Both the position numbers and the translations under genes were made by a program. Positions 28,958 to 55,257 of a stretch of 64,000 nucleotides of DNA are shown here, piece by piece. Each line of letters begins with the position of its first letter. Positions within the stretch are counted from its first letter, which is position 1. Source of the stretch: Candidatus Omnitrophota bacterium (lineage in GTDB: Bacteria; Omnitrophota; Gorgyraeia; Velamenicoccales; Velamenicoccaceae); NCBI GenBank assembly GCA_020052645.1, contig JAGVOQ010000011.1:40890-104889 (forward strand), read 5' to 3'. The notes under the pieces are model-generated. The model was not told where the DNA came from, ran no database searches, and saw only the letters and a program-made list of their open reading frames with translations.

Positions 28958-30337
28958 CTACTCGCCGACTTTAAACAAGAGCTCCAAATCTTTCTTTGCT
29001 TCTTCAAGGTCACAAGCGCTTAATTCTCCAGTTTTTACAATGCATTTCACATTTCCATCATAATCCGACCACTCCTCAGAAAGCAACTCCCCTCTTTCCT
29101 CTACTTGCCTAAAATACTCAGTACCTGGAAAAGGGGTCGCATATGAAAACTGACAAGAATCAGGCTTCAATTCTTGGATAAAAGACTTCATCGCGCGGAT
29201 CGTCTCTTTTGTCTCACCCAATAGCCCTAAACAAAAGGTCAAGTGAACCTTGATCCCTTGATCTTTAGTCGCCTGAATCATCTGCCTTGTTTTTTTAAGA
29301 TCGATATTTTTCTTGATCCCCTCTAGAACGGCTTGCGAGACAGATTCAACGCCATATTTAACCGCATAAAAACCGCTTCCCGCCAGAACATCTAAGGTTC
29401 CTTCATCCATCAAGTCAGCGCGCGCCATGGCTGACCAGGGAACAGACAACTTTCTTTTTTTAATCTCACCGGCAATCCCAAGCACATGGTTTTTATCAAC
29501 ATTGAAGCAATCATCGTCGAAATAGACGGCTTTAAAATGATATTCTTTAACCAAATATTCCATCTCATCGACTACGGCTCTAGGATTTCTGAGGCGGATG
29601 CGACGCTCGTTGTAGATCACTTGAGGCCAAAGACAAAACGTACACGCAAACGGACAACCGCGGCTTGACAACATCTGCACGCTTGGAAACGGCATTTGAC
29701 AAAAACCGTCATGATATCTTTCCAGCGGCAAACTCGCGCGTTCAGGCCAAGGGAGTTCGTCAAGAGGTTCAATGCTCAAACGACGCGGATTTTCTAATAC
29801 TTGGCCGCTTTCCCGATAAGACAATCCGCGCACCTGGCTTAACTTTGAACCCGTCGCAAGATGCCGCACTAAATCCAAAAGCGTTCCTTCATACTCACCC
29901 CGAAAGACATAATCGATAACCGGATAGTGCTCAAGAATCTGTTGTGAAAATACCGTGGCATGCGGCCCAACAAGCGCAACAGAACCAGGAACAAGGCATT
30001 CCTTCATTTTCTTAATAAGGAACAAATCGTTGTCAAAAGAAGGCGTGGATGTTTCTACGACGATCAATGTGGGTGAAAAAAACTTTATTTTTTCAATCGT
30101 CTCGTTAATATTCAATTCTTGGGCTATTGAATCCAAGAGCAAAACTTCAACTCCGTCTTTTTTTAAAACAGCAGCAGCTGTCGCCAAAAAAAACGGAAAA
30201 GGAATATAAGGCAAATGCCCTTTGGGCACTGGAGGCGCTGTGAATGGCCAGCGCGAACCGGCGCGCACGCCAAAACGGCCCCGCACTTCCCAGGGAAGAT
30301 TAACCAGAACAACGCGCATATTACTTTTTGAAATCAA
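28958..30337 (-). CDS. B12-binding-domain radical SAM enzyme (class B)
   Basis: N-terminal Rossmann/B12-like module (MRVVLVNLPW...) followed by SSRGCPFACTFCLWP (CxxxCxxC). Confidence 0.8.
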   Translation of the reverse strand: MISKSNMRVVLVNLPWEVRGRFGVRAGSRWPFTAPPVPKGHLPYIPFPFFLATAAAVLKKDGVEVLLLDSIAQELNINETIEKIKFFSPTLIVVETSTPSFDNDLFLIKKMKECLVPGSVALVGPHATVFSQQILEHYPVIDYVFRGEYEGTLLDLVRHLATGSKLSQVRGLSYRESGQVLENPRRLSIEPLDELPWPERASLPLERYHDGFCQMPFPSVQMLSSRGCPFACTFCLWPQVIYNERRIRLRNPRAVVDEMEYLVKEYHFKAVYFDDDCFNVDKNHVLGIAGEIKKRKLSVPWSAMARADLMDEGTLDVLAGSGFYAVKYGVESVSQAVLEGIKKNIDLKKTRQMIQATKDQGIKVHLTFCLGLLGETKETIRAMKSFIQELKPDSCQFSYATPFPGTEYFRQVEERGELLSEEWSDYDGNVKCIVKTGELSACDLEEAKKDLELLFKVGE

Positions 30338-30659
30338 GGTGTTGCTCGATTTGTTCGAATGTAGAGGTTATTTGCTCAATATTAAGATTCATATCTTTAC
30401 AATCGCAATTCATCTGTTCCAGCATCTGCTTGGAATCAAACAACATCTGGCCCATGTTGGCGAACATGCGCACCAACGCCGCAGCCAACAGGCTATTGAA
30501 CAAAATAAAAAAACCCACCAACGGCAAACGCCCCTTCTGAAAATCAAAGATTGTCATGTAAATGGCCCCGCTCGCCCCTAAAAAAACCATGAGCCAGGAA
30601 AAAATTTCCAAAACAATCGTTGTCGGCATCTGTTGATTCTTCTTCGTCCATTTAATCAT
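30321..30659 (-). CDS. small 2-TM protein with a helical Met/Gln/Cys-containing tail
   Basis: Strong RBS (AAAGGGGG, 5 nt before the ATG). Two TM segments, then MLFDSKQMLEQMNCDCKDMNLNIEQITSTFEQIEQHL. Overlaps the next gene by 17 nt. Confidence 0.5.
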   Translation of the reverse strand: MIKWTKKNQQMPTTIVLEIFSWLMVFLGASGAIYMTIFDFQKGRLPLVGFFILFNSLLAAALVRMFANMGQMLFDSKQMLEQMNCDCKDMNLNIEQITSTFEQIEQHLDFKK

Positions 30660-30827: not shown

Positions 30828-32126
30828 TCACATTTCCCTATGCGTTGCTTCAGCTGCCTGTGCCAGAAGCATCAACATCTCAGGCATGCGCATTCTTAGG
30901 CCCTCGACCCATTCTTCAAAACAGACGGAAGATTCTTTTAAAAAACTTGTATCCAAATGAGGATGCTCTTTTTCCCTAATATCCTTCCAGTCATGAGCGC
31001 CTTCAACCAAAGCGACAAAACTTTTTAAAAGTTCCTCTTTAACATCAGGAAAAACAGATAAAAAAAGGTCTTTAAAAAAAGACTCACGAAATCGTGAATC
31101 GCGAAATTGGTGCCGTAGACAATTACTTAAAAGAAGGGAAAACGCGAAAAAATTCTGCGCAAGCGCCTTTGAGTCCGGGACAAGGCTTAAAAATGTAGAA
31201 CGCCCTCGGTCCATATGGTAAAAAAAACTTAAGTCCATCAACGCAACAAATCGAGAGAAGTCTGAGGCCTCCTCGCGCGACGATTTCTTTTTCTCCTGAA
31301 AAAAGAAAAATTCAAAATCTTTAAAAGCATGATGAACAGCCATTAAAAAATTAATGTAGAGTAAATTTTTGTTTCCCGCTTTTAAGTCTTCTTCCATGTA
31401 ATGCTGAGCGGTCCAGAAATCTGTTTTGATTTTTGTCAAAAATCGCGTAGCCTGAAAATGATTCTCCTGCGTATAATAAGGCAATTGCCAATGCCAATGA
31501 TTATTTAAAACAGATATAAGAGTGTCCCGCTTTAAATGGTTCGCGACAGCCCTTGGTTCATATTTAAAAATATACCCCGCGTTCCTCAACCTTGAACAAA
31601 TCTCAACATCCTCGTAGTTGGTCTTATAAATCTCATCGTAAAGACCGATTTTTGAAAAGACGTCGTGACGAAAAACCGTGTTAGAGCCGAATAAAAAAGG
31701 CGGTTCGCTTTGAGTCTCATGCCAATATTGGCGCATATGCACGGAGCGCCACTCATCGCAAACGTTCGACGTATACGCTTCGCAAAGTTTGCCGCCGGCG
31801 CCCGCGACGCAAGGCGCGTCAAATTTTTCAACAAGAAGCTTCAGCCAATCGGCTTGCGGAACACAATCCGCATCCAGGGATGCGATAAAAACCGAACGGG
31901 TATTCTTAAGACCCGAATTGCGGGCCGCTGCCAGTCCGAGATTGCTTTGATGACGAATGAGACGGACAGGATACCTTAAGACGATATCAACCGTTTCATC
32001 ACTTGAGCCGTCATCAATGACCAAAACCTCTTTTAATGGAAACGACTGCGCCAACACAGCCTTCAAACAGGGCTCGATGGTGTGCGCGGCGTTAAAACAA
32101 GGAATAACAACAGTAACGTCATCCAT
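30828..32126 (-). CDS. family-2 glycosyltransferase with an unassigned C-terminal domain
   Basis: VTVVIPCFNAAHTI..., VLVIDDGSSDET and a DADC (DxD) motif. The C-terminal half of about 200 aa is unrecognised. Confidence 0.8.
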   Translation of the reverse strand: MDDVTVVIPCFNAAHTIEPCLKAVLAQSFPLKEVLVIDDGSSDETVDIVLRYPVRLIRHQSNLGLAAARNSGLKNTRSVFIASLDADCVPQADWLKLLVEKFDAPCVAGAGGKLCEAYTSNVCDEWRSVHMRQYWHETQSEPPFLFGSNTVFRHDVFSKIGLYDEIYKTNYEDVEICSRLRNAGYIFKYEPRAVANHLKRDTLISVLNNHWHWQLPYYTQENHFQATRFLTKIKTDFWTAQHYMEEDLKAGNKNLLYINFLMAVHHAFKDFEFFFFQEKKKSSREEASDFSRFVALMDLSFFYHMDRGRSTFLSLVPDSKALAQNFFAFSLLLSNCLRHQFRDSRFRESFFKDLFLSVFPDVKEELLKSFVALVEGAHDWKDIREKEHPHLDTSFLKESSVCFEEWVEGLRMRMPEMLMLLAQAAEATHREM

Positions 32127-33297
32127 TTTTTAAATAATCCAGTTTTTTTTGAATATTGTCCTGTGCTGAGCGAATCTCAGCCAATATTTTATTTGAGGCA
32201 TCCTCTTTCCTTCTTGAAACCATAACTTGATCCAACAAAACACGTGCGATTTTTAAACCCATATATCTAAAATATTGATAAGCCCTGAAATAAAATCTTT
32301 TTTTTTGAATTTTCTTGAACTTCGCAACGTTAAACGTCTTTAATAATTTATATCCGCGTGGAACAAAATTACGGTCATAACAACTCATAAGACAACCGCA
32401 ACAACCAGTTTTTAAAACATCCTGCCGCAAGCGATCATGTGCGTCGGAATTCCAAATATTAAGCAGCGAGCCTTGCGCGATATTACCCAAGGGCTTGTCG
32501 CTTAAAACCCAGCAAAGAAAAACATCGCCTTGGGCTGATATAGGGCACGATGTCCATAAGGCACGGCAAGAATGCTCTTTGACAGGCGGCCTTAGATCGC
32601 ACAGATACGAGGCCAGATCCAAAAGATACCCCTTAGGGTTGGTTTCGATTCCATAAGACCTGGCCAATTCCATCACGCGTTCAAGGCTCGCCTGAACATC
32701 CGCAAGCAATTCACTGGAAATAAAAAAATCCCGCCGCTTGTTTTTATCAATAAGAAAAATATCACTAAAGGGCTGGAATTTCACCGAAGAGACGCCGTGA
32801 CGGCGGGCCAGATCCATAACATCAGACAACGTCTGATAATTCTGCCGACACACAATAGTGGCAATCGTTGTCTCAATTTTTTTTGCAGAAAGAATCTCGA
32901 GCGCTTTTAAAGCTCTTTTAAAGCTCCCCTGGCCTCTTAAAACATCATGCACGACTTCAGGCCCCTCGAGCGAGATATTAACAACGCCGATTCCCGAAGC
33001 TGCGAGACGTTCGGCGATGGCCTCATCAATCAACGTCCCATTAGACGTCAAGCAGGTGTTGATCTTTAATTCATGGACAAGAGACATTAGCTCAAAGATA
33101 TCAGACCGTACAAGCGGCTCTCCTCCGCTAAAAACAATGCTTTCAGGACACAACCGCGCGGCATCCCGGATCAATCTCTTACACTGTTCAGTGCTTAATT
33201 CCGCCTTGTCATTTTTTTCAGGAATCTGACACATGGCACATCTTAAATTGCACCGGTTTGTTATGGAAAGGATGACTTCTTTTAATCTATTGTTCAT
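32119..33297 (-). CDS. radical SAM enzyme with a Cys-rich C-terminal (SPASM/twitch-like) domain
   Basis: ITNRCNLRCAMCQ, FSGGEPLVRSDIF, TSNGTLID, and a C-terminal CPISAQGDVFLC...GCCGCLMSC. Confidence 0.85.
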   Translation of the reverse strand: MNNRLKEVILSITNRCNLRCAMCQIPEKNDKAELSTEQCKRLIRDAARLCPESIVFSGGEPLVRSDIFELMSLVHELKINTCLTSNGTLIDEAIAERLAASGIGVVNISLEGPEVVHDVLRGQGSFKRALKALEILSAKKIETTIATIVCRQNYQTLSDVMDLARRHGVSSVKFQPFSDIFLIDKNKRRDFFISSELLADVQASLERVMELARSYGIETNPKGYLLDLASYLCDLRPPVKEHSCRALWTSCPISAQGDVFLCWVLSDKPLGNIAQGSLLNIWNSDAHDRLRQDVLKTGCCGCLMSCYDRNFVPRGYKLLKTFNVAKFKKIQKKRFYFRAYQYFRYMGLKIARVLLDQVMVSRRKEDASNKILAEIRSAQDNIQKKLDYLKNG

Positions 33298-34493
33298 GGA
33301 TGGCTGGGTTTTCTTTCTATCATGGACTCATACGGCTTAAGCATCTTCAAGCCTTTTTCTAAAATTTCTCTTTTTTCCAGATCACTTAAAGGCAAGGACT
33401 CGATTTGACAGGTAAAATTTTCAACGATAGCACTCAACGAATCAGCTTCAGGCCGCGCCCAACAAGTCTGTAAACACGGCTTAGCGCAACGCAGCATCTT
33501 ATCTCGGGCTTTTTGAGCCTGGGCGCTCGATAAACAATCATTCAAGCTCATGTCCCTGACGTTGCCGAAAGAAGAACCACAGCTCCTGACATTCCCATCA
33601 GGGCCAATATCAATAAATACAAAAGGATTGCACTTCCAAATCTCTCTTGTTAATGTCCCTTGAAAATAATCGAGCCAAAGCATAGGGTCGTGTAGAAAAG
33701 CAATCCGCTCGTCATTCTTTTGGGCCGCCGCGATCCGCTCAATCTGAACTTTCAAGAGATTTACCTTATCTTTTCTTACCCAAAACGAACCTGTAGAAAT
33801 CGTATTCTGCATATCCGCCTGAGCCACGATAACAGGATGATAAACCAAGTGATCTATTTCAAGCTCTTGGGCAAGCGTCATCATATCGCAGAGCTCTTCT
33901 AAATTTTCTTTCATAATAGTCATCCAAACAGAAATATCAGGGCCACTCCCCTTCTTTTTCTTTTCTTGGGAAAGAGCACGCAAAGCGCCAACAGCCTTTT
34001 GATACGTACCGCCCACGCCACGAATCGCATCATGAGTTTCAGCGACAGCGCCGTCCAAAGAAACAGCGATATTCTTTAAGCCCGAGGCCACAATCTTTTC
34101 AATCATATGAGCGCTATCAATCAGGGTGCCATTCGTAACAACTTCTGTTTTTAACCCAAGAGATACCGCCCCATCAATAATGCTAAAAATGTCCCTTCTT
34201 AAAAATGGCTCGCCCCCTGTAAAAACAACACAAGGATCCGTTTGCCACTGTGCGATTTCAGCCAAAACCTTTTTCAAAAGCATAAAGTCCAGTTTATGCC
34301 GTCGAAGCGTTCTCTTGTTGCCGCACATTTGACAGTCTAAATTACATTTATGAGAAAGGCTGATGTAAATCCATTGCGGCCTAGCCAATGGTTTCTTAAA
34401 CACAGAGGAAAAATAATATTTCAGATTTTCCTCGAAATTCTTTAGTGGCGCTGAACCCGAATGCGTTTTTTCTAACTTCATTGTTTCATTCAT
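33294..34493 (-). CDS. radical SAM enzyme, paralogue 2
   Basis: SLSHKCNLDCQMCG, FTGGEPFLRRDIF and RCAKPCLQTC. The start at Met25 forms an ATGA overlap with the upstream stop. Confidence 0.85.
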   Translation of the reverse strand: MNETMKLEKTHSGSAPLKNFEENLKYYFSSVFKKPLARPQWIYISLSHKCNLDCQMCGNKRTLRRHKLDFMLLKKVLAEIAQWQTDPCVVFTGGEPFLRRDIFSIIDGAVSLGLKTEVVTNGTLIDSAHMIEKIVASGLKNIAVSLDGAVAETHDAIRGVGGTYQKAVGALRALSQEKKKKGSGPDISVWMTIMKENLEELCDMMTLAQELEIDHLVYHPVIVAQADMQNTISTGSFWVRKDKVNLLKVQIERIAAAQKNDERIAFLHDPMLWLDYFQGTLTREIWKCNPFVFIDIGPDGNVRSCGSSFGNVRDMSLNDCLSSAQAQKARDKMLRCAKPCLQTCWARPEADSLSAIVENFTCQIESLPLSDLEKREILEKGLKMLKPYESMIERKPSHP

Positions 34494-35752
34494 CGTAAAG
34501 AATTGATTTTTTTCCTTATACATCCAAGGCGACCCAATTCCCGTCCCAAGCCGTATGTTTCCCAAAAGCCGAAAGCACCCACTTTTTTATCTTTGATTTC
34601 TGTCCTTAAAACATCTTCTAAGGCTTTAAGCCTGTCCAAGAGCCCGGCCTTAACCTCGCTCTTTTCATCCTGGGGCTTTGAAGAAACCTTTTTAAGATAC
34701 TCACTGACTTGAGCTATGATATCCGTCGGAAAATAAATGCAATCCTGCATACAAAAATTCCTGCAGTTTTTAGCGCTTTCCCTGATTTTTTTAGCCTTAT
34801 GACAAAACCAGAGTTCTTTAAGGGTTTTATTTTTTAAATTTCCATACACACCGAAACAGCTCCAAAGGACACCGTCATAAGAAATAACGATCCGCTTGAT
34901 CGCCTCATAACAGTTAAAACTTTTGAACACCTTCTTACTTTTAAAATATGCCGGCATGGCGTTAAGAATCGCCCTGTCGGTAAAAACGTTTGTCTCTTTA
35001 AAACCAGGTTTTAAGCTTAAAACTTTATTCCAGACTGATTTTAATAAGTCTATATCTCTTGCCTTCGGCCACAGATCATCTTTGGCCTCTTCATACATTT
35101 TTGTATTATTTGCCAAAAGTGGCTGAAAAAGGATGCTGCATTTATGATCCCTGGCAAATTCAACTAAAGGTAAGATATCGCCAATGTTAGCCCCCATCAC
35201 GGTACAATTAATGATAAGGGTCGGAAAAAATGTATTATACACCGACTTCAAGCGATTGAGCCTCTCAATATTCGATTTTACTTTTTCAAAAACACCCACC
35301 CCGCGTATAAAATCATTTTTTTCTTTCAAGCCGTCCAAAGAAAAAGACACATTGTTCACTTTCAACTTAATTATCTGTTCGCATTTCGCCTCATCAAGCA
35401 AAGTTCCGTTGGTGATAATATCCACCATCTCGATGCCGCGGCGAACAGCATAAGCAACAAGTTCGGATAATCCCTCTTTTAAAAAAGGCTCACCCCCTGA
35501 AAATATAATATGCCGGGCCCCCAGATCTTTAATTTGATCAATGATGTTTTTAAGTTCTTCAACACTCAACTCCTGTTCAAGCCTTGATGAAATATCAGGG
35601 ATATCACACATCTTGCACCGCAGGTTGCAGCGGTTGGTGAGATTGAAATAGACATGTTCCGGAGGGACAAGAGGTCGAGAAAGGGCCCTGCCGAAATAAA
35701 ACCCTAAGATATCTTTCCACTGATTCAATTCTCTTCGCGCGAATAAATCCAT
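34490..35752 (-). CDS. radical SAM enzyme, paralogue 3
   Basis: NLTNRCNLRCKMCD, FSGGEPFLKEGL, ITNGTLLDE and NCRNFCMQDC. Confidence 0.85.
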   Translation of the reverse strand: MDLFARRELNQWKDILGFYFGRALSRPLVPPEHVYFNLTNRCNLRCKMCDIPDISSRLEQELSVEELKNIIDQIKDLGARHIIFSGGEPFLKEGLSELVAYAVRRGIEMVDIITNGTLLDEAKCEQIIKLKVNNVSFSLDGLKEKNDFIRGVGVFEKVKSNIERLNRLKSVYNTFFPTLIINCTVMGANIGDILPLVEFARDHKCSILFQPLLANNTKMYEEAKDDLWPKARDIDLLKSVWNKVLSLKPGFKETNVFTDRAILNAMPAYFKSKKVFKSFNCYEAIKRIVISYDGVLWSCFGVYGNLKNKTLKELWFCHKAKKIRESAKNCRNFCMQDCIYFPTDIIAQVSEYLKKVSSKPQDEKSEVKAGLLDRLKALEDVLRTEIKDKKVGAFGFWETYGLGRELGRLGCIRKKINSLR

Positions 35753-35767
35753 GTTTGAACTTTTTCT

Positions 35768-36805
35768 TTAACTACACAACTGTTTCGCTAAATGCTTCAA
35801 ACTCCCCGCGGCTATTTTAGAATAACAGGCCTGTAAACACAGCCGCGTGCACGTCTTGGAATGCCTACGCAATTCATGAGCCTCTTTTGACCTCCAGGCT
35901 TTTTTTAATGAACACCTGCTTAAGTCGCCGCAAAGGCCGTGGCAGGAATACGCATAGGGAATTTTATGAGAAAAACAGACAAACAATGTTTTGAAACCTC
36001 CAAAACAAACCCAATCTTTTTGAGTCAAAGTTCCGTCGTAATATTTAACAAGAAGATTCAGGCTGGGCTCTTCATAAAGGCGCACATGCCGGTATTGGGC
36101 GGTTTTTATTTTTTCGATCTCATCTTTTAACAACCTTAAACTGTTTTTTTGGACCCACCCAGAGCTTTTGGAACAATCCGTAAAATCAGCATTGTCCGAA
36201 AGAATCGGCTGAAAATTAATAACATCTATCTTGTGCTCATCCGCCCACGCGGCGATTTTTGACAATTCACCCGCGTTAACATCCATCACTGTGCAGGCGA
36301 CTCCTAAAGAAAAAAAACGTTTTTTGAAGCGGAACTCATTCAAAAAACCTATCCCTTCAACGATTTTCCCAAACGTCCCAGAACCTCTTAAATGATCATG
36401 GGTAGCCTTTAGCCCATCCATTGAAATATGAACATGGGCAACGCCACTGTCAGCGAGTTTTTTAGAAACATCCTCATCTAACAAAGTGCCATTAGTCGTA
36501 AGTACAGTCTTTAAGCCGCGTACAGCGGCATAGCGACAAATGTCAAAGATATCGCTCCGAAGAAGCGGCTCTCCACCGGTTAAGACCAATTCCTTAACCC
36601 CTAGAGCCACAGCGCCATCTAAGAGCTTTTCCACCTGGGCCTGCGCAAGTTCTTCCTCCTGCGGCAATAATTGCTTTAAATGACAAATTTTGCACTTCAA
36701 ATTGCAACGATACGTCAGCGCAACCTGCATCACTTGAGGACCAACAAGAGGATAACCGATCTTGTGCGACAGCCAAAAGAAAAAATTATCTTTTTGACAG
36801 ATCAT
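35768..36805 (-). CDS. radical SAM enzyme, paralogue 4
   Basis: ALTYRCNLKCKICH, LTGGEPLLRSDIF, TTNGTLLDE and TCTRLCLQAC. Confidence 0.85.
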   Translation of the reverse strand: MICQKDNFFFWLSHKIGYPLVGPQVMQVALTYRCNLKCKICHLKQLLPQEEELAQAQVEKLLDGAVALGVKELVLTGGEPLLRSDIFDICRYAAVRGLKTVLTTNGTLLDEDVSKKLADSGVAHVHISMDGLKATHDHLRGSGTFGKIVEGIGFLNEFRFKKRFFSLGVACTVMDVNAGELSKIAAWADEHKIDVINFQPILSDNADFTDCSKSSGWVQKNSLRLLKDEIEKIKTAQYRHVRLYEEPSLNLLVKYYDGTLTQKDWVCFGGFKTLFVCFSHKIPYAYSCHGLCGDLSRCSLKKAWRSKEAHELRRHSKTCTRLCLQACYSKIAAGSLKHLAKQLCS

Positions 36806-36824: not shown

Positions 36825-38741
36825 TCATGCTTCACAAAAACACGGTAATAAACATGGCCAGGGACATTTTTTAACACGTGCCGAAGCTCGCATCCTCTTA
36901 GGACTATTCAGGATATTTTCAAAATTCTTCTTTTTGATATTACCGTAAGAAGAAAAACAAGTCGTACAATCTCCTAAAGTTGAGACCAAAACAGTCCGGC
37001 CGGCAGATTGGCATTGGATATCCCTCGACGTAAGCGTCCCCCGATAATATTTTTTTATCAGCAATAAATTTAAAAGTGAATTTTTTATAAAATTAGGGCA
37101 CTGGCGCTTTAAAGCAACCAGCTTATCCAACGCGGCATCCAGCACAGAAAAACGCTCTTCAGGAACCCAAAAACCGCTCGCCTTTCTTTCGTCCATCTTT
37201 AAATTATTCGGCAAAAGCGACTGGAATTGCAACGAATTGGCACCTAGCGAATGAACGAATGAAACAATCTCATCAAGCTCTTCTAAGTTCTGATTCAAGA
37301 TGACCGTAATAACATTAAAATTGATCTGGGGATTTTTATTTTTTGCCTGCGCCAACCTTCTCAATACGGCGTGCGTTGCCTCCCAGGCAATTTCAGAATT
37401 CCTGACCGTGTTATGGACAACTTGTTTCAAAGAATCAAAAGAAATCACAAGAGAAATGGTATTATCACAAAGATATGGCATCACAACCTCAAAATGTTTT
37501 TCTACCAATATACCATTGCTTAAAACCCCTAGATTTTTAATTTTTAGATTCCGCGCGGTTTCAAAAACATTAAATATGTCCTGACGTAAAAGCGGTTCAC
37601 CGCCGGATAAAGTAATTTCAGGGATCTTAAGTGCCTGGGCTTGCGACAAAATACGCGCAAGAGCATCAAACCCTAAGTCTTCATCCTTGCTTTTAGTTTT
37701 CCAAATATCGCAAATATTACACATCAAATTGCATTGATGCGTGATGTCGAGGATCAAAAGACGGGGAACTCCAGCGCCACCGTCGTTTGTGCCGAATCCG
37801 TTTTTTTTGATCTGGAAAAATTCGCGAATGTTGCCTGCGATATAACAAATTTTGTGCATCGTAAAAAAAAGATAAATATCACATTTGTTAAAAAATCCTT
37901 TCACATCCTCTTCACGAATCAGTTTTCGTCCGCAGAGAAAACTAAAACGCGGGATCTTTAAAATATTGACGAAAGAACCAAACCAAAAAGACAAAGAGCC
38001 GGTTCTTAGTTCCTTAAGCAGAGGATGATCTCTATGCATATGCTGAACCAAAAAGTTCCCGCGGCCATAAACAAAGGCCTGCCTTAAAAAACTTTTTACA
38101 GTCCCTTCCCTGTCGTGAAGGACTTTGATTTCAGGGATAAAAAGAAAACGCCTGCCTTTTTTAAACAAACGCCAGAAAAATTCAAGATCCTCTCCTCCCG
38201 GAAAAAGAAAGCGTTCGTCAAAACTTTTTAAGCCGAAAACATCTCTTTTACATGAAACATTACAGGTAGGGAAAAATATAATTTCTTTCTTGCCAGCCAA
38301 TTTCGTTTCAATGCTCCATGTGCTTAATTTTTGACTGATCAAAAGATGAGGCGTAGAACACCCTGAAATTGTTTCACCTCCGATACAAGATATCTTGGGG
38401 AATTTTTGATGGGCTTCAACCATCTGTGCGACCCATGACCCCATGACCAGGCAATCATCATCAACAAAACCTATCAGAGAGCCACTGGCCACCTCGATGC
38501 CGCGATTTCGGGCGCGCGCCGGCCCTTGGTGAGATCCGGAGACATAACGAAGATTAAAAAAATCGTTTTTTGCTTCATCGACAACTTTTTTCGTTGATTC
38601 AGAAGCTCCATCATCAACAACAATGATCTCAAAAGTATAGCGGCGATCCTTCATTGCCGCAAAAGAATCCAAACAGCGCTTAAGACTTGCGTCTCGCTTA
38701 CATGTCGGTAGTACGATCGAAATATCGATGCTCATATTCAA
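36825..38741 (-). CDS. fusion protein: N-terminal GT2 glycosyltransferase plus C-terminal radical SAM domain
   Basis: Residues 1-300 carry ISIVLPTCKRD, IIVVDDGASEST and FVDDDC. From residue 330 they carry ILDITHQCNLMCNICD, LSGGEPLLRQDIF and KCPWPCLLPC. Confidence 0.85.
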   Translation of the reverse strand: MNMSIDISIVLPTCKRDASLKRCLDSFAAMKDRRYTFEIIVVDDGASESTKKVVDEAKNDFFNLRYVSGSHQGPARARNRGIEVASGSLIGFVDDDCLVMGSWVAQMVEAHQKFPKISCIGGETISGCSTPHLLISQKLSTWSIETKLAGKKEIIFFPTCNVSCKRDVFGLKSFDERFLFPGGEDLEFFWRLFKKGRRFLFIPEIKVLHDREGTVKSFLRQAFVYGRGNFLVQHMHRDHPLLKELRTGSLSFWFGSFVNILKIPRFSFLCGRKLIREEDVKGFFNKCDIYLFFTMHKICYIAGNIREFFQIKKNGFGTNDGGAGVPRLLILDITHQCNLMCNICDIWKTKSKDEDLGFDALARILSQAQALKIPEITLSGGEPLLRQDIFNVFETARNLKIKNLGVLSNGILVEKHFEVVMPYLCDNTISLVISFDSLKQVVHNTVRNSEIAWEATHAVLRRLAQAKNKNPQINFNVITVILNQNLEELDEIVSFVHSLGANSLQFQSLLPNNLKMDERKASGFWVPEERFSVLDAALDKLVALKRQCPNFIKNSLLNLLLIKKYYRGTLTSRDIQCQSAGRTVLVSTLGDCTTCFSSYGNIKKKNFENILNSPKRMRASARVKKCPWPCLLPCFCEA

Positions 38742-38750
38742 CTTTTTTTC

Positions 38751-41468
38751 CTAAACATCGCCAAAAACAATCCTGCCTGTAAAATATGAATGTTCGCCCA
38801 TATCTAAAACAGCGGCATTTTTTGTGAGATACTGAAGAATCCTACCTCGAAAATAAAGATCCGAATTAACGATATTTAAACAACCGTTTCTATTATTTGC
38901 ATCTAAAGAAAAAACAATCGGCGGCAAGGCACCATCGACTCCTGACGCAACCCCTATAGAACGATCGCACTTTTCTTTAGCCCCATCTTCTGTCCAAATC
39001 AAATCCCAATCATCATCGATATCGCCTCGAAAATCAGGAAAAGCCCCTTCTGCCCCCAGCCCTTGCCATTTAAGATATTCTTCAGAAAGCATGAGATTCG
39101 TTTGCAGGCGTTCAAAAGCAAGCCCTTGATCCAAAATCAGACGTACATTGAAAAAAACCCTCATTTGTTCATCCAGAGAAATTTCCCAAATCTGGCTCAT
39201 GGGCAACTCTCTCCATCGCCCTCGGGCTCTTATGAAGCGCGCGTTATTCTCTAAAATTTCCCATTGAGCCATTAGCAGGGAATCATGCCAGCGCCCTTTA
39301 TAGCGCAAAGACGTATAAAAAGCGTGTTTCTTGGTCAGCTCTTTTCCTTTCTTAAACAAACGCACGCATCCATTATCAAAAACTATTTTTTTATTCTCGT
39401 CTAAAACGATTTCCGCCCGCATCTTTAGAAAAACAATCGGTTCATTTTTAAATGCGACACTTAATTCAAAACAAGGGGTGAAGCCACGGGAAAATTTCAT
39501 CCTTCCTTCAGGTTCAACGCGTTCTATTTTTAACTCACGGGCGCTGTACGAAAAATCAGAATTACCGATTTTCGCAAAATTATTCAATACTTTAGAAAAT
39601 TTTATTTCACAAGAAGGCAAAGAATCACCCTGTGCGCTCAAACCCACAACGCCGCCGCAAATACAACGTTGAACCACATCAAAAAAAACTTCGCCAAAAT
39701 CATTCAAGAATTCCCCGCGATCAACATCCGTAAACCAATAACCATATTGCGACAAACATCTGAACGTCATGCCCTGACTTTCTATATCCACTTCCTGACT
39801 TAAATCCAGGCCCACCTTTACCCTGAATTCGGATTCATTTAAAATTTCTATCTCCCACACCTGGGAAAGAGGCAAGTTGTGCCAAAACCCCCGAGCAATA
39901 AGCTTCGTTGCGCTTTCTTTTTTAAACTCCCATTGGGCGTACGTCGAAGAATACCATCGTCCGTTGGCAAAGAAAGAAACGCTCGCATGATCCCCCTTGG
40001 TAAGCGTTACCCCTTTACAAGAAACCATGAGGCGGCCGTTATCAAAAACACATTTTAAAGCTCCTTTTTCTAAAACAAATTCTTCCTGTATTTGGCGCAG
40101 AAATTTTTCAGGCTCAGGGACCGCGCAAAGAATTTTTCCGGAAAAAATATGCCGATGGACTATCCCCAAATCTTCGTTCTCGTTAAAAACAGTTGTCTTA
40201 AATTGCAAAAGACGACAATTCAAAAAATCATCGGAATTAAAGATCTGGGCATGGCAAAGGCCGGACTGCTGAAAGATCAAAGGCGCGAGATTTGTATCGG
40301 AAGTTGTCTCTGCCTTAACTCCTAACGCCTTTCTCTCAATATTGTTACCCAGAAAAGCCTGCCAATTCCAACTGGCCTGCCCTTGAGATAAAAATTCACC
40401 CTGTTCTAAAGTCGTCATCCAATGCGTAAAGCCGCGGGTAAGCATAATATTGGAGCATCCCTCTTGAACAACGAAATTCCTTGGTCCCTCAACCTCAACC
40501 TGCCAATCAATACAACTGTTTCTTAAACTAATTTTCCAGACTTGAGTCAATGCAGGGCTTGAAAGTTTCCCTCTTAAGACCCACAGGCCTTCCCCGCCGC
40601 TTGCAACCTCCCAATCGAATTCCTGAGAGCTGACCCATTTATTATCCACGCGCAAAACCATGTGCGCGCCTAAACCCGGGGTCAAAAGCACGTCGCAAAA
40701 ATTTATGAAGAGCCGGCCGTTATTAAAAATAATTTTTAAAGGCCCCTCTTGCAATCCGGCGATCCCTTTCTTTTCTCCGATATTCTGCAAAAACGCCGAA
40801 ACAACCAAATCCACCGGCCCATCCTTGATCAGCCGGCCCTCTTTAAAAAGAAGGACGCGACAACACAATTGCCGCAATAAATTAATATCATGCGTCACAA
40901 AAAGAATCGTCTTTCCCTGTTCTTTCAGCTCAAAAATCTTCTGAACACATTTTTTCTGAAAATATTCATCACCGACAGCCAAGGTATCATCAATCAAAAG
41001 GATGTCCGGATCTACATGTACGGCGATGGCGAAAGCCAGACGCACAAACATGCCTTGCGAATAACATTTAACCGGGGCATGGATAAATTTACCTAAAGCC
41101 GCGAAACGTATAATGGCGTCACGACGCTCTTCAATCTGTTTTTTATTTAATCCAAAAAGGCCGCCGCTTAAAAATATATTTTCCTCGCCAGTCAATTCAG
41201 GTTGAAATCCGGCCCCAAGCTCTAACAACCCTGAAACACGGCCTTCAATACCAACCTGGCCCCGGTCAGATTTTAGAAGACCAGCTATTAATTTCAAAAC
41301 CGTCGATTTACCGGCGCCGTTTTCTCCGATAATACCCAGGGTTTCGCCTTTTTCAACGCTAAAACTAACGTCTTTCAAAGCCCAAAAGCTCTCCCAGGCG
41401 GTCCTTCGCCTCTGGAAGAACTTAATCCTATACATTTCCCAAACGTTTTTGAATTGAACAACAGGCAT
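38751..41468 (-). CDS. Wzt/TagH-type polysaccharide ABC exporter ATPase with a roughly 660-aa triple-repeat C-terminal extension
   Basis: GENGAGKST, YSQGMFVRLAFA, ILLIDDTLAVGD and VTHD in the first 230 aa. Three homologous modules of about 215 aa follow. Confidence 0.85.
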   Translation of the reverse strand: MPVVQFKNVWEMYRIKFFQRRRTAWESFWALKDVSFSVEKGETLGIIGENGAGKSTVLKLIAGLLKSDRGQVGIEGRVSGLLELGAGFQPELTGEENIFLSGGLFGLNKKQIEERRDAIIRFAALGKFIHAPVKCYSQGMFVRLAFAIAVHVDPDILLIDDTLAVGDEYFQKKCVQKIFELKEQGKTILFVTHDINLLRQLCCRVLLFKEGRLIKDGPVDLVVSAFLQNIGEKKGIAGLQEGPLKIIFNNGRLFINFCDVLLTPGLGAHMVLRVDNKWVSSQEFDWEVASGGEGLWVLRGKLSSPALTQVWKISLRNSCIDWQVEVEGPRNFVVQEGCSNIMLTRGFTHWMTTLEQGEFLSQGQASWNWQAFLGNNIERKALGVKAETTSDTNLAPLIFQQSGLCHAQIFNSDDFLNCRLLQFKTTVFNENEDLGIVHRHIFSGKILCAVPEPEKFLRQIQEEFVLEKGALKCVFDNGRLMVSCKGVTLTKGDHASVSFFANGRWYSSTYAQWEFKKESATKLIARGFWHNLPLSQVWEIEILNESEFRVKVGLDLSQEVDIESQGMTFRCLSQYGYWFTDVDRGEFLNDFGEVFFDVVQRCICGGVVGLSAQGDSLPSCEIKFSKVLNNFAKIGNSDFSYSARELKIERVEPEGRMKFSRGFTPCFELSVAFKNEPIVFLKMRAEIVLDENKKIVFDNGCVRLFKKGKELTKKHAFYTSLRYKGRWHDSLLMAQWEILENNARFIRARGRWRELPMSQIWEISLDEQMRVFFNVRLILDQGLAFERLQTNLMLSEEYLKWQGLGAEGAFPDFRGDIDDDWDLIWTEDGAKEKCDRSIGVASGVDGALPPIVFSLDANNRNGCLNIVNSDLYFRGRILQYLTKNAAVLDMGEHSYFTGRIVFGDV

Positions 41469-41469
41469 C

Positions 41470-42285
41470 TTAGATTCGTTTTAACAGATTGGATTCAAAA
41501 CGCGCAAAAATCAATAATCCCAACATTAGGGTTAACCCGGACAAAAGGAAAAGAAGAAAAAAACTAAAAGCAGACGGAATTTGGCCATAAAAAACAAGGG
41601 CCCTAAAATCAATCACGTAGAGTGTGACTGGATTAAGAGCAACAATCCAGCGGAATTTCACAGGAAGCATATCCAGCGAATAAAAAACCGGAGTGATCCA
41701 AAACCAACACATAAAAATGACGCCCAGAAGATGGCCCAGATCGCGGACAAAAACATTTAGAACAGACAGCGCAAGCCCCGCGCCCCAGGTCAAAAACAAA
41801 AATAAAAGAAGAACGATCAAAATAAAAGGAAGGAAAAAAATGATCTTCGGATGTTGGATTATAAACAAAGGAAGAACGACAATCCACCCAATCATAAAAT
41901 TTAAAAAATTGGCCAGAATAGAAGACAAGGGCAAAATTTCTTTAGGAATGTTGAACTGACGTAAAATAGCGGCTTGGTTTAAGAATACCGAAGAGGCCTC
42001 TGTCAACGCGCAGGAAAAAAACATCCATAAAAAAATCCCGGAAAGGACAAAAAGAGAATAGTGACCGACACTCATTCTCGAAAAACCGCTGAATACACAT
42101 GTAATAGCCAGAGCGACCAACAACGGATTTACGATCGCCCAAAATACCCCCAAAAATGAACCTGCGTATTTAGCCTTAAGCTGCTTGAACGCCAAATCCC
42201 ACAACGCATGACCGTACAAAAATATATCCTCAACTCGTTTCTTAAAATCCATTCGCACCCCAAGAGGTTTTTTTATGCTTTCCAT
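41470..42285 (-). CDS. ABC-2 type (Wzm/TagG-like) exporter permease
   Basis: LKAKYAGSFLGVFWAIVNPLL N-terminal motif and 6 TM segments. Sits 1 nt from the ATPase gene. Confidence 0.85.
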   Translation of the reverse strand: MESIKKPLGVRMDFKKRVEDIFLYGHALWDLAFKQLKAKYAGSFLGVFWAIVNPLLVALAITCVFSGFSRMSVGHYSLFVLSGIFLWMFFSCALTEASSVFLNQAAILRQFNIPKEILPLSSILANFLNFMIGWIVVLPLFIIQHPKIIFFLPFILIVLLLFLFLTWGAGLALSVLNVFVRDLGHLLGVIFMCWFWITPVFYSLDMLPVKFRWIVALNPVTLYVIDFRALVFYGQIPSAFSFFLLFLLSGLTLMLGLLIFARFESNLLKRI

Positions 42286-52113: not shown

Positions 52114-53472
52114 TCAAACCGGCGGCGGAAAACCATGATAAACGCGATCCATGGATATAATGGCCAGGTCGTTAAGGCGGGACTTCACCACGAGGTCCCA
52201 AAACCTCTGATATTCAATCAAAGCAAATACGATAAGACATAAAACTAAAAAAATCATCGCCAAATAAAAAAAACAATTCCTAAGCTTAGCCCTTAAAAAA
52301 AGAATAACCTCCCAGACACCGCATGCGCTCAATAAATAAAAAGGCCCGCTAACAACACCCATGTACCTCATATTTTTTAAATTCGGCATATAAGTAATGA
52401 TGCCAATGTAAGCGGTCAAAATAAAAATCATGAAAAAAACAATATCCTGATTTTTATGAAAAAATAGAACTTTGGGTTTAATTTTATTAAATAGCGCCAC
52501 AACAATAGCCAAGGCACATAAAACCATACTACAAGGCATTAACAACCAAAAACCTTTAATGATTTGAAACCATGGGCCGGAGCAAGTCCTAACGCCATAA
52601 GGCGAACCATCCATGATTCCCCGAATATGGGAGATAGCTTCCCACACAATAGGCGCCCCGCCGACTACCCAAAAAAGAATTCCTGCGCTTATCGCCATTC
52701 CAAGGATGCTGAAAATTACCAACAAACCTGCCCTTTTAAATTCTTTTTCCCTGAAAATCAAAAATCCCAATACATACAGAAGACACAGCCCATAAATGAT
52801 AACAGCTGATTCTTTAATGAGCAGACCATACGCACCGGCAACGATAAAAAGAACCATCCAAATCGTCTTGCGAAAATCTTTTATTATCCTGCAGCTTAAA
52901 TACAAGAGCAACATTCCCAAGCACCCCATCATGGCATCTTGCCAAAATCTTTGCGCCAACGCAATATCTAAGGGAGAAACCGCCGCAAGAAAAAGAGCCA
53001 ACGCAGCAATCGGCCAATTAAAAAAACGGATGGCAAACATCATCATAAGCAATAATGACACGATAGTAAAAAAACAAGAAACAGCAACCCCACCCTGGAG
53101 ACTTGGTACTCTTGTTATTTTCATAACCAGTGCAATAGGAACAAGATAACCTATTCTATAAGGAGGTGGATAATACCAGCTTTCTTTATTGGCATTAAAA
53201 TTTCGCAGCAAAAGCCTTATGCCAGAAATTTCTTTTTCCATTATAGTCGTCGTAAAATAAGCATATATACCTTCATCAGCGCTTCGGCCATCCAACTGAT
53301 GCATGCTCTCAAGCCGAAAGACGCTCCCAGTAAAAAAAGCCTGGAACAATATTATAGACACAAAAAAATTCCTAATCCTGCGACCAGACCCTCCCTCTAT
53401 TTTTGCCACAAACACTTCCAGCCGAGCGTCTTCTTTCTTTTTTAGGTCTTTAATAACTTGCTCATCCTTCAC
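52114..53472 (-). CDS. GT-C fold (ArnT/PMT_2-like) membrane glycosyltransferase
   Basis: About 11 TM segments and an acidic first-loop motif, SADEGIYAY. Confidence 0.6.
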   Translation of the reverse strand: MKDEQVIKDLKKKEDARLEVFVAKIEGGSGRRIRNFFVSIILFQAFFTGSVFRLESMHQLDGRSADEGIYAYFTTTIMEKEISGIRLLLRNFNANKESWYYPPPYRIGYLVPIALVMKITRVPSLQGGVAVSCFFTIVSLLLMMMFAIRFFNWPIAALALFLAAVSPLDIALAQRFWQDAMMGCLGMLLLYLSCRIIKDFRKTIWMVLFIVAGAYGLLIKESAVIIYGLCLLYVLGFLIFREKEFKRAGLLVIFSILGMAISAGILFWVVGGAPIVWEAISHIRGIMDGSPYGVRTCSGPWFQIIKGFWLLMPCSMVLCALAIVVALFNKIKPKVLFFHKNQDIVFFMIFILTAYIGIITYMPNLKNMRYMGVVSGPFYLLSACGVWEVILFLRAKLRNCFFYLAMIFLVLCLIVFALIEYQRFWDLVVKSRLNDLAIISMDRVYHGFPPPV

Positions 53473-53493
53473 CGCAATCTCCTTTTTAAAAGT

Positions 53494-55104
53494 CTAAAGA
53501 ACATCAAAAATCTCAATAACCATGGCATTCCTTTCAAACCTTTTTAACAAAACTAAATGATTTTTTAAAAATATCTCTTCCTCGGGCTGCCCCTCATCTT
53601 TCAGCGCCTGCTTATCATAAACAAAAATATCAAATTTTTCCTTTACATTAACCACGCGCAACGGTTTTTTAACATAGCCTAACGCAGGGTATCTCAAAAC
53701 AGCCATAAACGGCCACGAGGTTAAAATACGCTTATCCGAAAAATTTAATTCGACATAACGCGCGGCATCTTGAGAAATTTTCACCGCATCGATATATTCG
53801 TTATTATAAACAACTGAATCTAGGGCCCATCCATTAACATCATAGCGCATCAATGAAAATAGTACGGTTAAATAAAATACAACTTTAGGCAAAAGCAATT
53901 TATTTTCATCAATAAATCTTACCAAGCTTAGAACCCCCAAAAAATAAAAAAATGGGTAAAAAGGAATCAGCCAACGCGCGCTAAAACTTTTAACAAGAGC
54001 AAAAGAAAAGATCACAACGAAAAGAAATAAAATAAAAAAAATCCTTAAAAAACCGAGCGGCTTGCGCCTATGGACGTCGGCAATAAAATGATAAAAAATT
54101 ATAATTGTCAGGAATACATTCCCAAACAAAAAGAAATGCTCGAATATGCGCCCCACCCTTAAAACATACAATGGGCCTGATAGCTGCAATCCATTGTAAC
54201 GCTCAAAAATTTCTGAATATAGCAAAATACCGCTTGAGTAATAATGGCCGATAAACCAAGCAACATAAACAATAAAAGGTAAACAAAAAAAGAAACAATC
54301 CCTGCTTTTTAATTTTAATCTATCTTTTTCATAAAATTTCAATATGATAAAATTCAAAAAGAGCAAGACACCTATTGATACAATACCGGTGGCTTTCGTT
54401 AAAACCGCAAAAGATGAAAAAAGACCGAAAAGAAGATACTTTTTGCGCAACAACGAATATGTTGAAGCCAAAAAAAACGCTGCCAGAGGAACATCCAAGA
54501 CGACAGTCCCGAAATGAGTAAATACTGTCGGGGAATAAAAAAATAACACCGCCGCAAAAAAACCGATCCTGGCATCTTTGAAAAAATCCCTGCCGATCAG
54601 ATAGGTATAAAAAAGGGGCATCCAAGAAAAAACTAGAGCTGCCAGATGAGAAACAATGATTTTCTGGCCAAAAACATTCCATAAAAACGCCAGAAATTCG
54701 AAATAAAAGAAAGGGTGCCCTGTATCAAAAGGAGCAGCCGAGGAAAAAGGCCAGAGGTGATTCTTAAAAATAACATCCGCATGTCCAATGGTCCATTGTT
54801 CATCCCAGTAAAAAGGAAGGCGCAAAACATTGGCCCTGTTTATTAAAACCATTGCGAGAATAAAAAAAGCAACAAAGACAGGACGATCCAACAATCCATC
54901 TTTCTTTATATCTTTTACAGGGAAGAGATAGACAAAACAAAACGACAGGGCAGCGCAGGAAAAAAACAGAATTATTTTGTAATGAAGAGGATACGCCTCA
55001 TGAAAATTATATAAATAATAAAAAGTCAGGCCGCCGGTTAGAACAAAGAACAGTGCTACGGCCGAAAAGAGCTTACTTGCCCTCGCATTCATTCGCGTCA
55101 GCAT
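53494..55104 (-). CDS. GT-C fold (ArnT/PMT_2-like) membrane glycosyltransferase
   Basis: Polytopic protein with the first-loop motif LPFYWDEQW and a C-terminal soluble domain. Confidence 0.6.
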   Translation of the reverse strand: MLTRMNARASKLFSAVALFFVLTGGLTFYYLYNFHEAYPLHYKIILFFSCAALSFCFVYLFPVKDIKKDGLLDRPVFVAFFILAMVLINRANVLRLPFYWDEQWTIGHADVIFKNHLWPFSSAAPFDTGHPFFYFEFLAFLWNVFGQKIIVSHLAALVFSWMPLFYTYLIGRDFFKDARIGFFAAVLFFYSPTVFTHFGTVVLDVPLAAFFLASTYSLLRKKYLLFGLFSSFAVLTKATGIVSIGVLLFLNFIILKFYEKDRLKLKSRDCFFFCLPFIVYVAWFIGHYYSSGILLYSEIFERYNGLQLSGPLYVLRVGRIFEHFFLFGNVFLTIIIFYHFIADVHRRKPLGFLRIFFILFLFVVIFSFALVKSFSARWLIPFYPFFYFLGVLSLVRFIDENKLLLPKVVFYLTVLFSLMRYDVNGWALDSVVYNNEYIDAVKISQDAARYVELNFSDKRILTSWPFMAVLRYPALGYVKKPLRVVNVKEKFDIFVYDKQALKDEGQPEEEIFLKNHLVLLKRFERNAMVIEIFDVL

Positions 55105-55136
55105 TCGTTTAAAGCGCCTTCTTTAGACCCTTCTTG

Positions 55137-55205
55137 AGTGAAGTTCCTTAGGACTTTAAGTCCTAAGGCTTCCTCCTTTAGCAGAAAATGCACAACACCA
55201 TTCAT
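55137..55205. repeat. 69-bp dispersed repeat, copy B
   Basis: Same sequence as 25685-25753 except T/C at 25741/55193. The flanks are related but diverged. Confidence 0.9.
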
Positions 55206-55257
55206 TCTTTAGGGCTAAAAGCCTTAAAAGGATTTCTGCTAAAGGATTAAGCCTAGT

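Follow-up and report, generated by a model that had tools for sequence, protein, structure and literature searches.

The described systems that most resemble the locus reported here are the ATP-binding cassette (ABC)-transporter O-polysaccharide pathways, such as that of Aquifex aeolicus WzmWzt and that of Escherichia coli O9a, with its multi-glycosyltransferase polymerase WbdA and fused terminator WbdD. To our knowledge, no ABC-transporter-dependent O-polysaccharide pathway uses radical S-adenosylmethionine (SAM) enzymes, and the only carbohydrate radical SAM chemistry we know of acts on small molecules (aminoglycosides, nucleoside antibiotics and lipid head groups). Here we describe a gene on the minus strand of a 64,000-nucleotide stretch of a Candidatus Omnitrophota genome (assembly GCA_020052645.1, contig JAGVOQ010000011.1, positions 40,890 to 104,889; the whole stretch is hereafter “the window”), which joins a family 2 glycosyltransferase (GT2) domain and a radical SAM domain in one polypeptide, hereafter “the fusion”. 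It is the third gene of an 11-gene co-directional block that includes, in order, Wzm, a 905-amino-acid (aa) Wzt, the fusion, four stand-alone radical SAM paralogues (rSAM1 to rSAM4), a second GT2, a small protein with two transmembrane segments (2-TM protein) and a B12-binding radical SAM enzyme. The locus is like the O-polysaccharide pathways in its Wzm, Wzt ATPase and beta-rich Wzt extension, as well as in multi-domain cytoplasmic glycosyltransferases, fused tailoring enzymes and the WecA-like, WaaL-like and LpxC genes of the source genome. Unlike those pathways, it has a radical SAM enzyme fused to a glycosyltransferase, from four to more than 10 further radical SAM enzymes following, and three Wzt tail modules where the described systems have one.

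Sugar transfer and radical SAM chemistry are paired in several other described systems. In blasticidin S biosynthesis a sugar is transferred and then edited by a radical SAM enzyme (BlsD, followed by the cytosylglucuronate decarboxylase BlsE, 7VOB), and BlsE ranks second among solved structures in the profile search with the fusion's radical SAM half (82 bits, with similarity confined to the core); however, BlsD and BlsE are separate proteins and act on a nucleoside antibiotic rather than a polymer. HpnI/HpnK/HpnJ and the calditol synthase Cds similarly combine a GT2 with a (B12-)radical SAM enzyme by which the sugar, once transferred, is remodelled, although the radical SAM half of the fusion appears to be SPASM/twitch-like and not of the B12 type seen in HpnJ. 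The mycofactocin cluster also holds both enzyme types, MftF (GT2) and MftC (radical SAM/SPASM), and rSAM4 scores 119.6 bits against MftC (cut-off 265), but the operon is without MftA/B/D/E, a peptide or a RiPP recognition element (RRE) domain (RiPP, ribosomally synthesized and post-translationally modified peptide). BtrN, NeoN, DesII and AprD4, which are twitch/SPASM enzymes working on carbohydrates, anaerobically abstract a hydrogen atom from a sugar carbon, leading to oxidation, epimerisation or deoxygenation; BtrN and DesII were recovered in the profile search of the radical SAM half, weakly (28-38 bits). In contrast to the fusion, all four act on small molecules and none is fused to a glycosyltransferase.

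We consider it likely, on the strength of sequence comparisons, that the fusion is a bifunctional cytoplasmic, peripherally membrane-associated enzyme of a Wzm/Wzt O-antigen-type glycan pathway. What would be new here is a GT2-radical SAM didomain enzyme within such a pathway, both parent families being known; full-text literature searches brought up no description of the fusion or the locus, and in Omnitrophota genome papers radical SAM appears as no more than a Pfam count. If this assignment is true, radical tailoring extends to exported glycans, providing an oxygen- and NAD-independent path to unusual sugars in anaerobes, and the presence of glycosyl transfer and a radical step on one polypeptide would give a compact entry to the chemistry of the pathway in vitro. 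Omnitrophota are ultra-small, often host-dependent bacteria, and their surface glycans likely matter in attachment and in phage or host recognition.

The fused polypeptide and its two halves

A first-pass annotation, made from the letters of the window, had reported a 638-codon frame without internal stop at 36825-38741. The frame is present and lies on the minus strand, which the annotation had left unstated, and every motif it quoted was located where it had placed it (ISIVLPTCKRD at residues 7-17, IIVVDDGASEST at 39-50, FVDDDC at 92-97, HQCNLMCNICD at 335-345 and LSGGEPLLRQDIF at 378-390). A search of 5.8 billion proteins recovered more than 120 clusters of full-length fusion homologues of 600-650 aa (∼635 aa) with 44-83% identity and both Pfam domains, drawn from independent JGI, ENA, NCBI and Logan assemblies, those with names being called “glycosyltransferase [Candidatus Omnitrophota]”. 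The frame across the domain junction is common to these homologues, which bears out the description of a single continuous fused polypeptide. An alignment of 37 homologues within the same range of identity, on which all statements of invariance below rest, showed end-to-end conservation, with residues 312-325 as the sole poorly conserved stretch. The AlphaFold2 model had a mean predicted local distance difference test score (pLDDT) of 90.7, and only residues 315-323 fell below 50, a model consistent with two well-folded domains on a short (∼10-residue) flexible tether.

The N-terminal half matched Glycos_transf_2 (PF00535) over residues 8-169 (E = 2e-25; 90.1 bits against a cut-off of 23.3). 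Of its DxD motif (38454-38462), D94 and D96 are invariant and D95 is present in at least 90% of homologues, and G183-E184-D185 is invariant as well; the Pfam match and these catalytic residues uphold the earlier view that residues 1 to about 300 hold a complete GT2 module. By Foldseek the half resembles the WrtF fucosyltransferase, AvpGT, the chondroitin polymerase K4CP, hyaluronan synthase and SpsA, which places it with the GT-A fold. Its best NCBIfam match was the EpsD exopolysaccharide glycosyltransferase (NF041875) at 128.1 bits, below the cut-off of 370, and its score against MftF (TIGR03965) was 115.8 bits, below the cut-off of 280. The catalytic core is followed by a module of amphipathic, basic helices whose invariant residues include K262, P264, F266, H296, K297, Y300 and G303. 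No transmembrane segment was found in the fusion (the highest 19-residue hydropathy was 1.24), so that transmembrane anchoring is ruled out by hydropathy; the modelled amphipathic basic helices are in keeping with activity at the inner membrane face. The helical module is also present in GT2 relatives of 302-323 aa that stand alone, and a rapidly built tree of this half places these as a sister group. In a search of 1.84 billion representatives, the GT2 half also matched giant proteins of 1200-4400 aa with 3-8 tandem GT2 repeats; these giants, which are kin to its GT2 subfamily, top the list since their repeats sum, and only single-stretch matches spanning the helical module were kept.

The C-terminal half matched Radical_SAM (PF04055) over residues 333-496 (E = 2e-17; 64.3 bits against a cut-off of 29.5), and both the Cx3Cx2C motif (C337, C341 and C344; 37710-37733) and the GGE motif (G380-G381-E382) are invariant, in agreement with the full radical SAM core that had been proposed from about residue 330. 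Beyond the core, auxiliary cysteines are invariant in the arrangement C577-x17-C595 ... C626-x3-C630-x3-C634, with C636 present in at least 90% of homologues and C592 not conserved; by sequence, the C-terminal domain is SPASM/twitch-like and of a non-canonical form. Structure comparison matched the half to SuiB and SkfB, and its solved relatives by profile were SkfB (87 bits), BlsE, MoaA (74 bits) and GDGT-MAS (68 bits), with CteB, PqqE, SuiB, anSME, viperin, DesII and BtrN ranked lower. The BlsE family (TIGR04466, cut-off 400) was absent from the best 25 families of the fusion, and the highest score for it in the operon was 68.9 bits, from rSAM3. Nor does the half have the marks of a RiPP maturase, as no PqqD match was found in the fusion, the linker leads straight into the radical SAM half, and no precursor-like open reading frame (ORF) was found in the operon. 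Together, the two halves are predicted to be a complete inverting-type GT-A GT2 and a complete radical SAM enzyme with an auxiliary Fe-S domain. Given two complete domains whose catalytic residues do not vary among the 37 homologues, the fusion would be a selected bifunctional enzyme and not an accident.

Exporter, operon and distribution

The 70 fusion-related loci found among GTDB species representatives were compared, with genes upstream counted in the 39 loci with enough flank and genes downstream in 30. Wzm lies directly upstream in 35 of the 39 and the long Wzt in 33. The transporter of the window matched PF01061 and PF00005 and has a predicted beta-rich C-terminal extension (putatively glycan-binding), as in Wzm/Wzt exporters of the O-antigen type: its Wzt ATPase domain shares 43-44% identity with the O-antigen Wzt of A. 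aeolicus (TM 0.86), to which it is nearer than to TagH or TarH, and in an AlphaFold model (pLDDT 83) the long Wzt has the ATPase domain followed by three all-beta modules of ∼215 aa each. Weaker homologues of these beta modules were seen in ∼28 further sampled genomes of the phylum, some in proteins of more than 4000 aa. To describe co-inheritance, 301 genomes (247 of high quality) drawn evenly from the phylum Omnitrophota were surveyed. The fusion was present in 14 of the 301 (11 of the 247 high-quality genomes) and the full-length long-Wzt tail (E < 1e-60) in 12, 11 of which carry the fusion; this co-occurrence should be read as a count rather than as a statistical test, as the sampled genomes are interrelated. 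The three fusion-bearing genomes without a strong Wzt match had a broken fusion (G211), were 69% complete (G204) or gave a partial match to the Wzt tail (G290). A single exception in the other direction was G175 (C3:16243-18228), with a full-length long Wzt (E = 7.5e-136) and no fusion detected. The fusion cluster is an accessory, patchily distributed unit.

Within the operon, rSAM1 to rSAM4 align end to end with the radical SAM half of the fusion (24-27% identity) and have the same five auxiliary cysteines. The C-x3-C-x3-C tail (C626-x3-C630-x3-C634), said by the first-pass annotation to be common to the neighbouring paralogues, is found in three of the four, the fourth having a C-C-G-C-x3-C variant. 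Downstream of the fusion, 24 of 30 loci hold rSAM3 orthologues and 21 of 30 hold rSAM4 orthologues; related loci often hold an inserted variable cassette of extra radical SAM and B12-radical SAM genes, reaching a dozen or more radical SAM domains. Larger fusions also occur in this locus type, joining a B12-radical SAM enzyme, a GT2 and a radical SAM domain (1170 aa; L050 8411-11923), a GT2 with radical SAM and radical SAM/SPASM domains (963 aa; P0117), or two GT2 domains, a GT1 and a radical SAM domain (1532 aa; L079 15996-20594). Such repeated independent joins are, in our view, the strongest argument that the glycosyltransferase and radical SAM activities share one pathway intermediate.

Genes for glycan synthesis lie beside the cluster in relatives, namely a WecA-like PF00953 gene, an amine-oxidase-like gene, Wzy_C, a GT4, epimerases, GDSL/SGNH proteins, MurA and MurB. 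The source genome (1.7 Mb, 89.9% complete) encodes LpxC, MraY, a second WecA-like PF00953 protein, two Wzy_C proteins (ligase or polymerase-type, WaaL-like) and two proteins of the UDP-glucose/GDP-mannose dehydrogenase (Ugd) family. As LpxC, WecA-like and Wzy_C genes are all present, the parts to start a polyprenyl-linked glycan and to attach it to lipid A-core exist. The first-pass annotation had suggested a glycan or glycoconjugate substrate for the whole operon, and this is supported by the upstream Wzm/Wzt genes, the O-antigen type of the Wzt, co-inheritance, the other glycosyltransferase-radical SAM fusions, the neighbouring glycan genes and the LpxC, WecA-like and WaaL-like genes. Its further view, that sugar transfer and radical chemistry share one acceptor, is an inference from the fusion.

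Proposed pathway and alternative explanations

Under the glycan-pathway assignment, the GT2 half would draw on a nucleotide sugar and, at the inner membrane face, add its sugar to a polyprenyl-phosphate-linked glycan. In the radical SAM half, a 5'-deoxyadenosyl radical would then take a hydrogen from the added sugar or its neighbour, and the sugar would be tailored with no need for oxygen or NAD; candidate reactions, with BlsE, BtrN, NeoN and DesII as analogues, are epimerisation, dehydrogenation, decarboxylation and deoxygenation. Further edits may come from the four paralogues and the B12-radical SAM enzyme, and the finished chain would be read by the three Wzt beta modules and then exported. 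We also put forward, tentatively and with somewhat less than even confidence, that the fusion is the signature enzyme of an undescribed class of surface polysaccharide that is radical-edited at the level of the lipid-linked polymer, with the edits read by the triple-module Wzt as an export signal and the pathway shared (probably by transfer) with DPANN archaea. If this is true, the edits, made under anoxia, would amount to C-H functionalisation, epimerisation, decarboxylation, C-methylation or carbocycle formation.

Several points weigh against the assignment to a glycan pathway. The predicted template modelling score of the fusion model was 0.56, meaning that the relative orientation of the GT2 and radical SAM domains is not predicted. 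In the NCBIfam profile comparison no equivalog cut-off was reached by either half; the SPASM match (PF13186, residues 577-622) scored 19.1 bits, under the cut-off of 21.5, and of the canonical seven SPASM cysteines only five to six are conserved. The radical SAM half has only distant relatives among solved structures, and the closest of these include peptide maturases (SkfB, SuiB and CteB) alongside sugar enzymes. The candidates for initiating transferase and ligase in the source genome sit on other contigs. Lastly, the radical domain could target the newly added sugar, the acceptor or the nucleotide-sugar donor, and the last of these options would count against a tailoring step on the lipid-linked glycan.

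This donor option is the basis of one alternative, in which the radical SAM half edits a nucleotide sugar, as DesII does with a TDP-sugar, and hands the donor to the fused GT2, the fusion serving for channelling. Radical SAM enzymes working on nucleoside diphosphate (NDP)-sugars exist, DesII itself appeared in the profile search (38 bits), and a flexible linker with unpredicted domain orientation is compatible with channelling. However, the similarity to DesII is weaker than that to BlsE, SkfB or MoaA, and the five homologous radical SAM domains of the operon (a dozen or more in relatives) would make an unusual row of NDP-sugar editors; we regard this explanation as unlikely. The same proteins might instead build a glycolipid head group, the GT2 glycosylating a membrane lipid, the radical SAM enzymes remodelling its sugar and the ABC-2 transporter moving the lipid. 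Models for such a route are HpnI/HpnK/HpnJ, which form the hopanoid cyclitol ether, and calditol synthase, which acts on glycerol dialkyl glycerol tetraethers (GDGTs). The amphipathic basic helices would suit a membrane surface, homologues of the lipid radical SAM enzymes Mss/Hbs occur in some Omnitrophota, and the best match of the B12-radical SAM enzyme is HpnJ (E = 1e-77, nearly full length). Yet that match is under half of the cut-off, the exporter is of the O-antigen Wzt type with beta-sandwich tail modules, and relatives carry polymerase-like multi-glycosyltransferase fusions and WecA/Wzy_C neighbours, leaving a glycolipid product with a slim chance of being correct. Two specific lipid links are ruled out for the source genome: that to hopanoids, as no squalene-hopene cyclase was found in the 89.9%-complete sequence, and that to GDGT/Tes (tetraether lipid) synthesis, the best Tes score being 66.7 bits against a cut-off of 450. 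Given the missing hopene cyclase and an HpnJ score of 262 against 577.6, the HpnJ-like last gene does not appear to work on hopanoids here.

A glycosylated RiPP, with SPASM-type radical SAM enzymes cross-linking a peptide, the GT2 domains glycosylating it and the ABC transporter exporting it, would account for SkfB, SuiB and CteB being structural or profile neighbours of the radical SAM half, and for both GT2 domains of the operon scoring on MftF and rSAM4 on MftC. We consider it very improbable: the MftF and MftC scores are far under their cut-offs, the transporter is a Wzm/Wzt and not a peptide exporter, and Pfam detected no PqqD/RRE domain or peptidase in any operon protein. No precursor-like gene was found in the operon, where the only small ORF is the conserved 2-TM protein and the sole spacer is 168 nucleotides (nt) long. 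With no precursor, RRE domain or peptidase found, a RiPP product is ruled out. The remaining explanation, that two neighbouring genes were wrongly merged in the source metagenome-assembled genome through an assembly error or frameshift, is barely credible. In its favour are an A8 homopolymer at the domain junction, which abuts the linker on the coding strand (37801-37808), and a few relatives with the halves as separate overlapping ORFs. In the Omnitrophota loci L059 and L063 the two halves are adjacent ORFs in different frames, the break falling exactly in the linker, with overlapping stop and start (ATG..TGA in L059; ATG 17 nt before TAA in L063); a 322-aa representative also ends in the linker, and in one bin (L070) a distance of 4 kb lies between the genes for the two orthologous halves. 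On the other side, the linker reads in frame into conserved sequence in both directions, no sign of error is seen at the A8 run because the frame on either side agrees with homologues, and the split forms nest within the fused Omnitrophota clade in the GT2-half tree (SH-aLRT 95), suggesting that they are secondary fissions or local errors. As the same ∼635-aa fused frame recurs in more than 120 independent assemblies, these homologues can be taken to exclude an artefact in practice. The split in L059 follows an A6 run, and slippage or fission may occur readily at the fusion junction.

Coordinates, gene start and further observations

The features described above are located in Table 1. The start of the fusion is probably ATG 38735 rather than TTG 38741, giving 636 aa, because homologues begin with MSIDISIV at the matching position and AGGA lies ∼12 nt upstream. 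The public gene call for the fusion in the source genome is 609 aa long and starts at M30. Residues 5-29 (window 38654-38741, minus) are conserved in all homologues, with S8, P12, R16, L20 and C23 invariant; the public call cuts off these family-invariant N-terminal residues and is therefore too short.

Table 1. Location of the fusion, its domains and the other genes of the operon in the window
Feature	Position	Strand	Basis or remark
GT2-radical SAM fusion gene	36825..38741	minus	638-codon ORF from TTG 38741; stop codon 36825-36827
GT2 (GT-A fold) catalytic domain, residues ~5-235	38037..38729	minus	PF00535, invariant columns, Foldseek
Helical module after GT2 core, predicted, residues 249-313	37803..37997	minus	AlphaFold2 helices 249-261, 263-277, 283-313
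Flexible interdomain linker, predicted, residues 314-325	37767..37802	minus	Low pLDDT, variable columns, split forms break here
Radical SAM core, residues 326-545	37107..37766	minus	PF04055, invariant columns, AlphaFold2, profile search
C-terminal auxiliary Fe-S domain, putative, SPASM/twitch type, residues 546-638	36828..37106	minus	Pfam, alignment
Wzm, ABC-2 permease, first operon gene	41470..42285	minus	PF01061; best match NF050109 galactan Wzm/RfbD
Long Wzt, 905 aa, ATPase domain and three all-beta modules	38751..41468	minus	Pfam, AlphaFold model
rSAM1	35768-36805	minus	Stand-alone radical SAM paralogue
rSAM2	34490-35752	minus	Stand-alone radical SAM paralogue
rSAM3	33294-34565	minus	Stand-alone radical SAM paralogue
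rSAM4	32119-33297	minus	Stand-alone radical SAM paralogue
Second GT2 glycosyltransferase, 432 aa	30828..32126	minus	Pfam/NCBIfam profiles
Small 2-TM protein, 112 aa, conserved C-terminal tail	30321..30659	minus	Comparison of related loci
B12-binding radical SAM enzyme, last operon gene	28958..30337	minus	HpnJ best match, 262 bits vs 577.6

GC content across the operon is 0.40-0.46 and matches that of the flanks, so that a recently acquired horizontal island is unsupported by base composition. Promoter and terminator scans gave matches at chance level. The fusion and rSAM3-/rSAM4-like genes were also found, at 37-39% identity, on three contigs (L068, positions 1-21860; L056; L057) from bins labelled Nanoarchaeota/Woesearchaeota; also encoded on L068 are an archaeal Hel308-type helicase domain, MurA, a GT2-MurB fusion, a sulfatase-family protein and GDSL proteins. 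Two readings suggest themselves: a cluster common to Omnitrophota and DPANN archaea, or contigs assigned to the wrong bins. The small 2-TM protein, which has no Pfam family, is kept at the same cluster position in 14 related loci, and combines a variable coiled-coil middle with a strongly conserved tail (...MNCDxKDxxxNIxQIxxFFExIERHLDLKK). Elsewhere in the window (52114-56892, minus), two GT-C/PMT-like membrane glycosyltransferases (452 and 536 aa) lie beside a 544-aa UbiA-family prenyltransferase, and may form a separate periplasmic glycosylation module using a polyprenyl-phosphate sugar donor.

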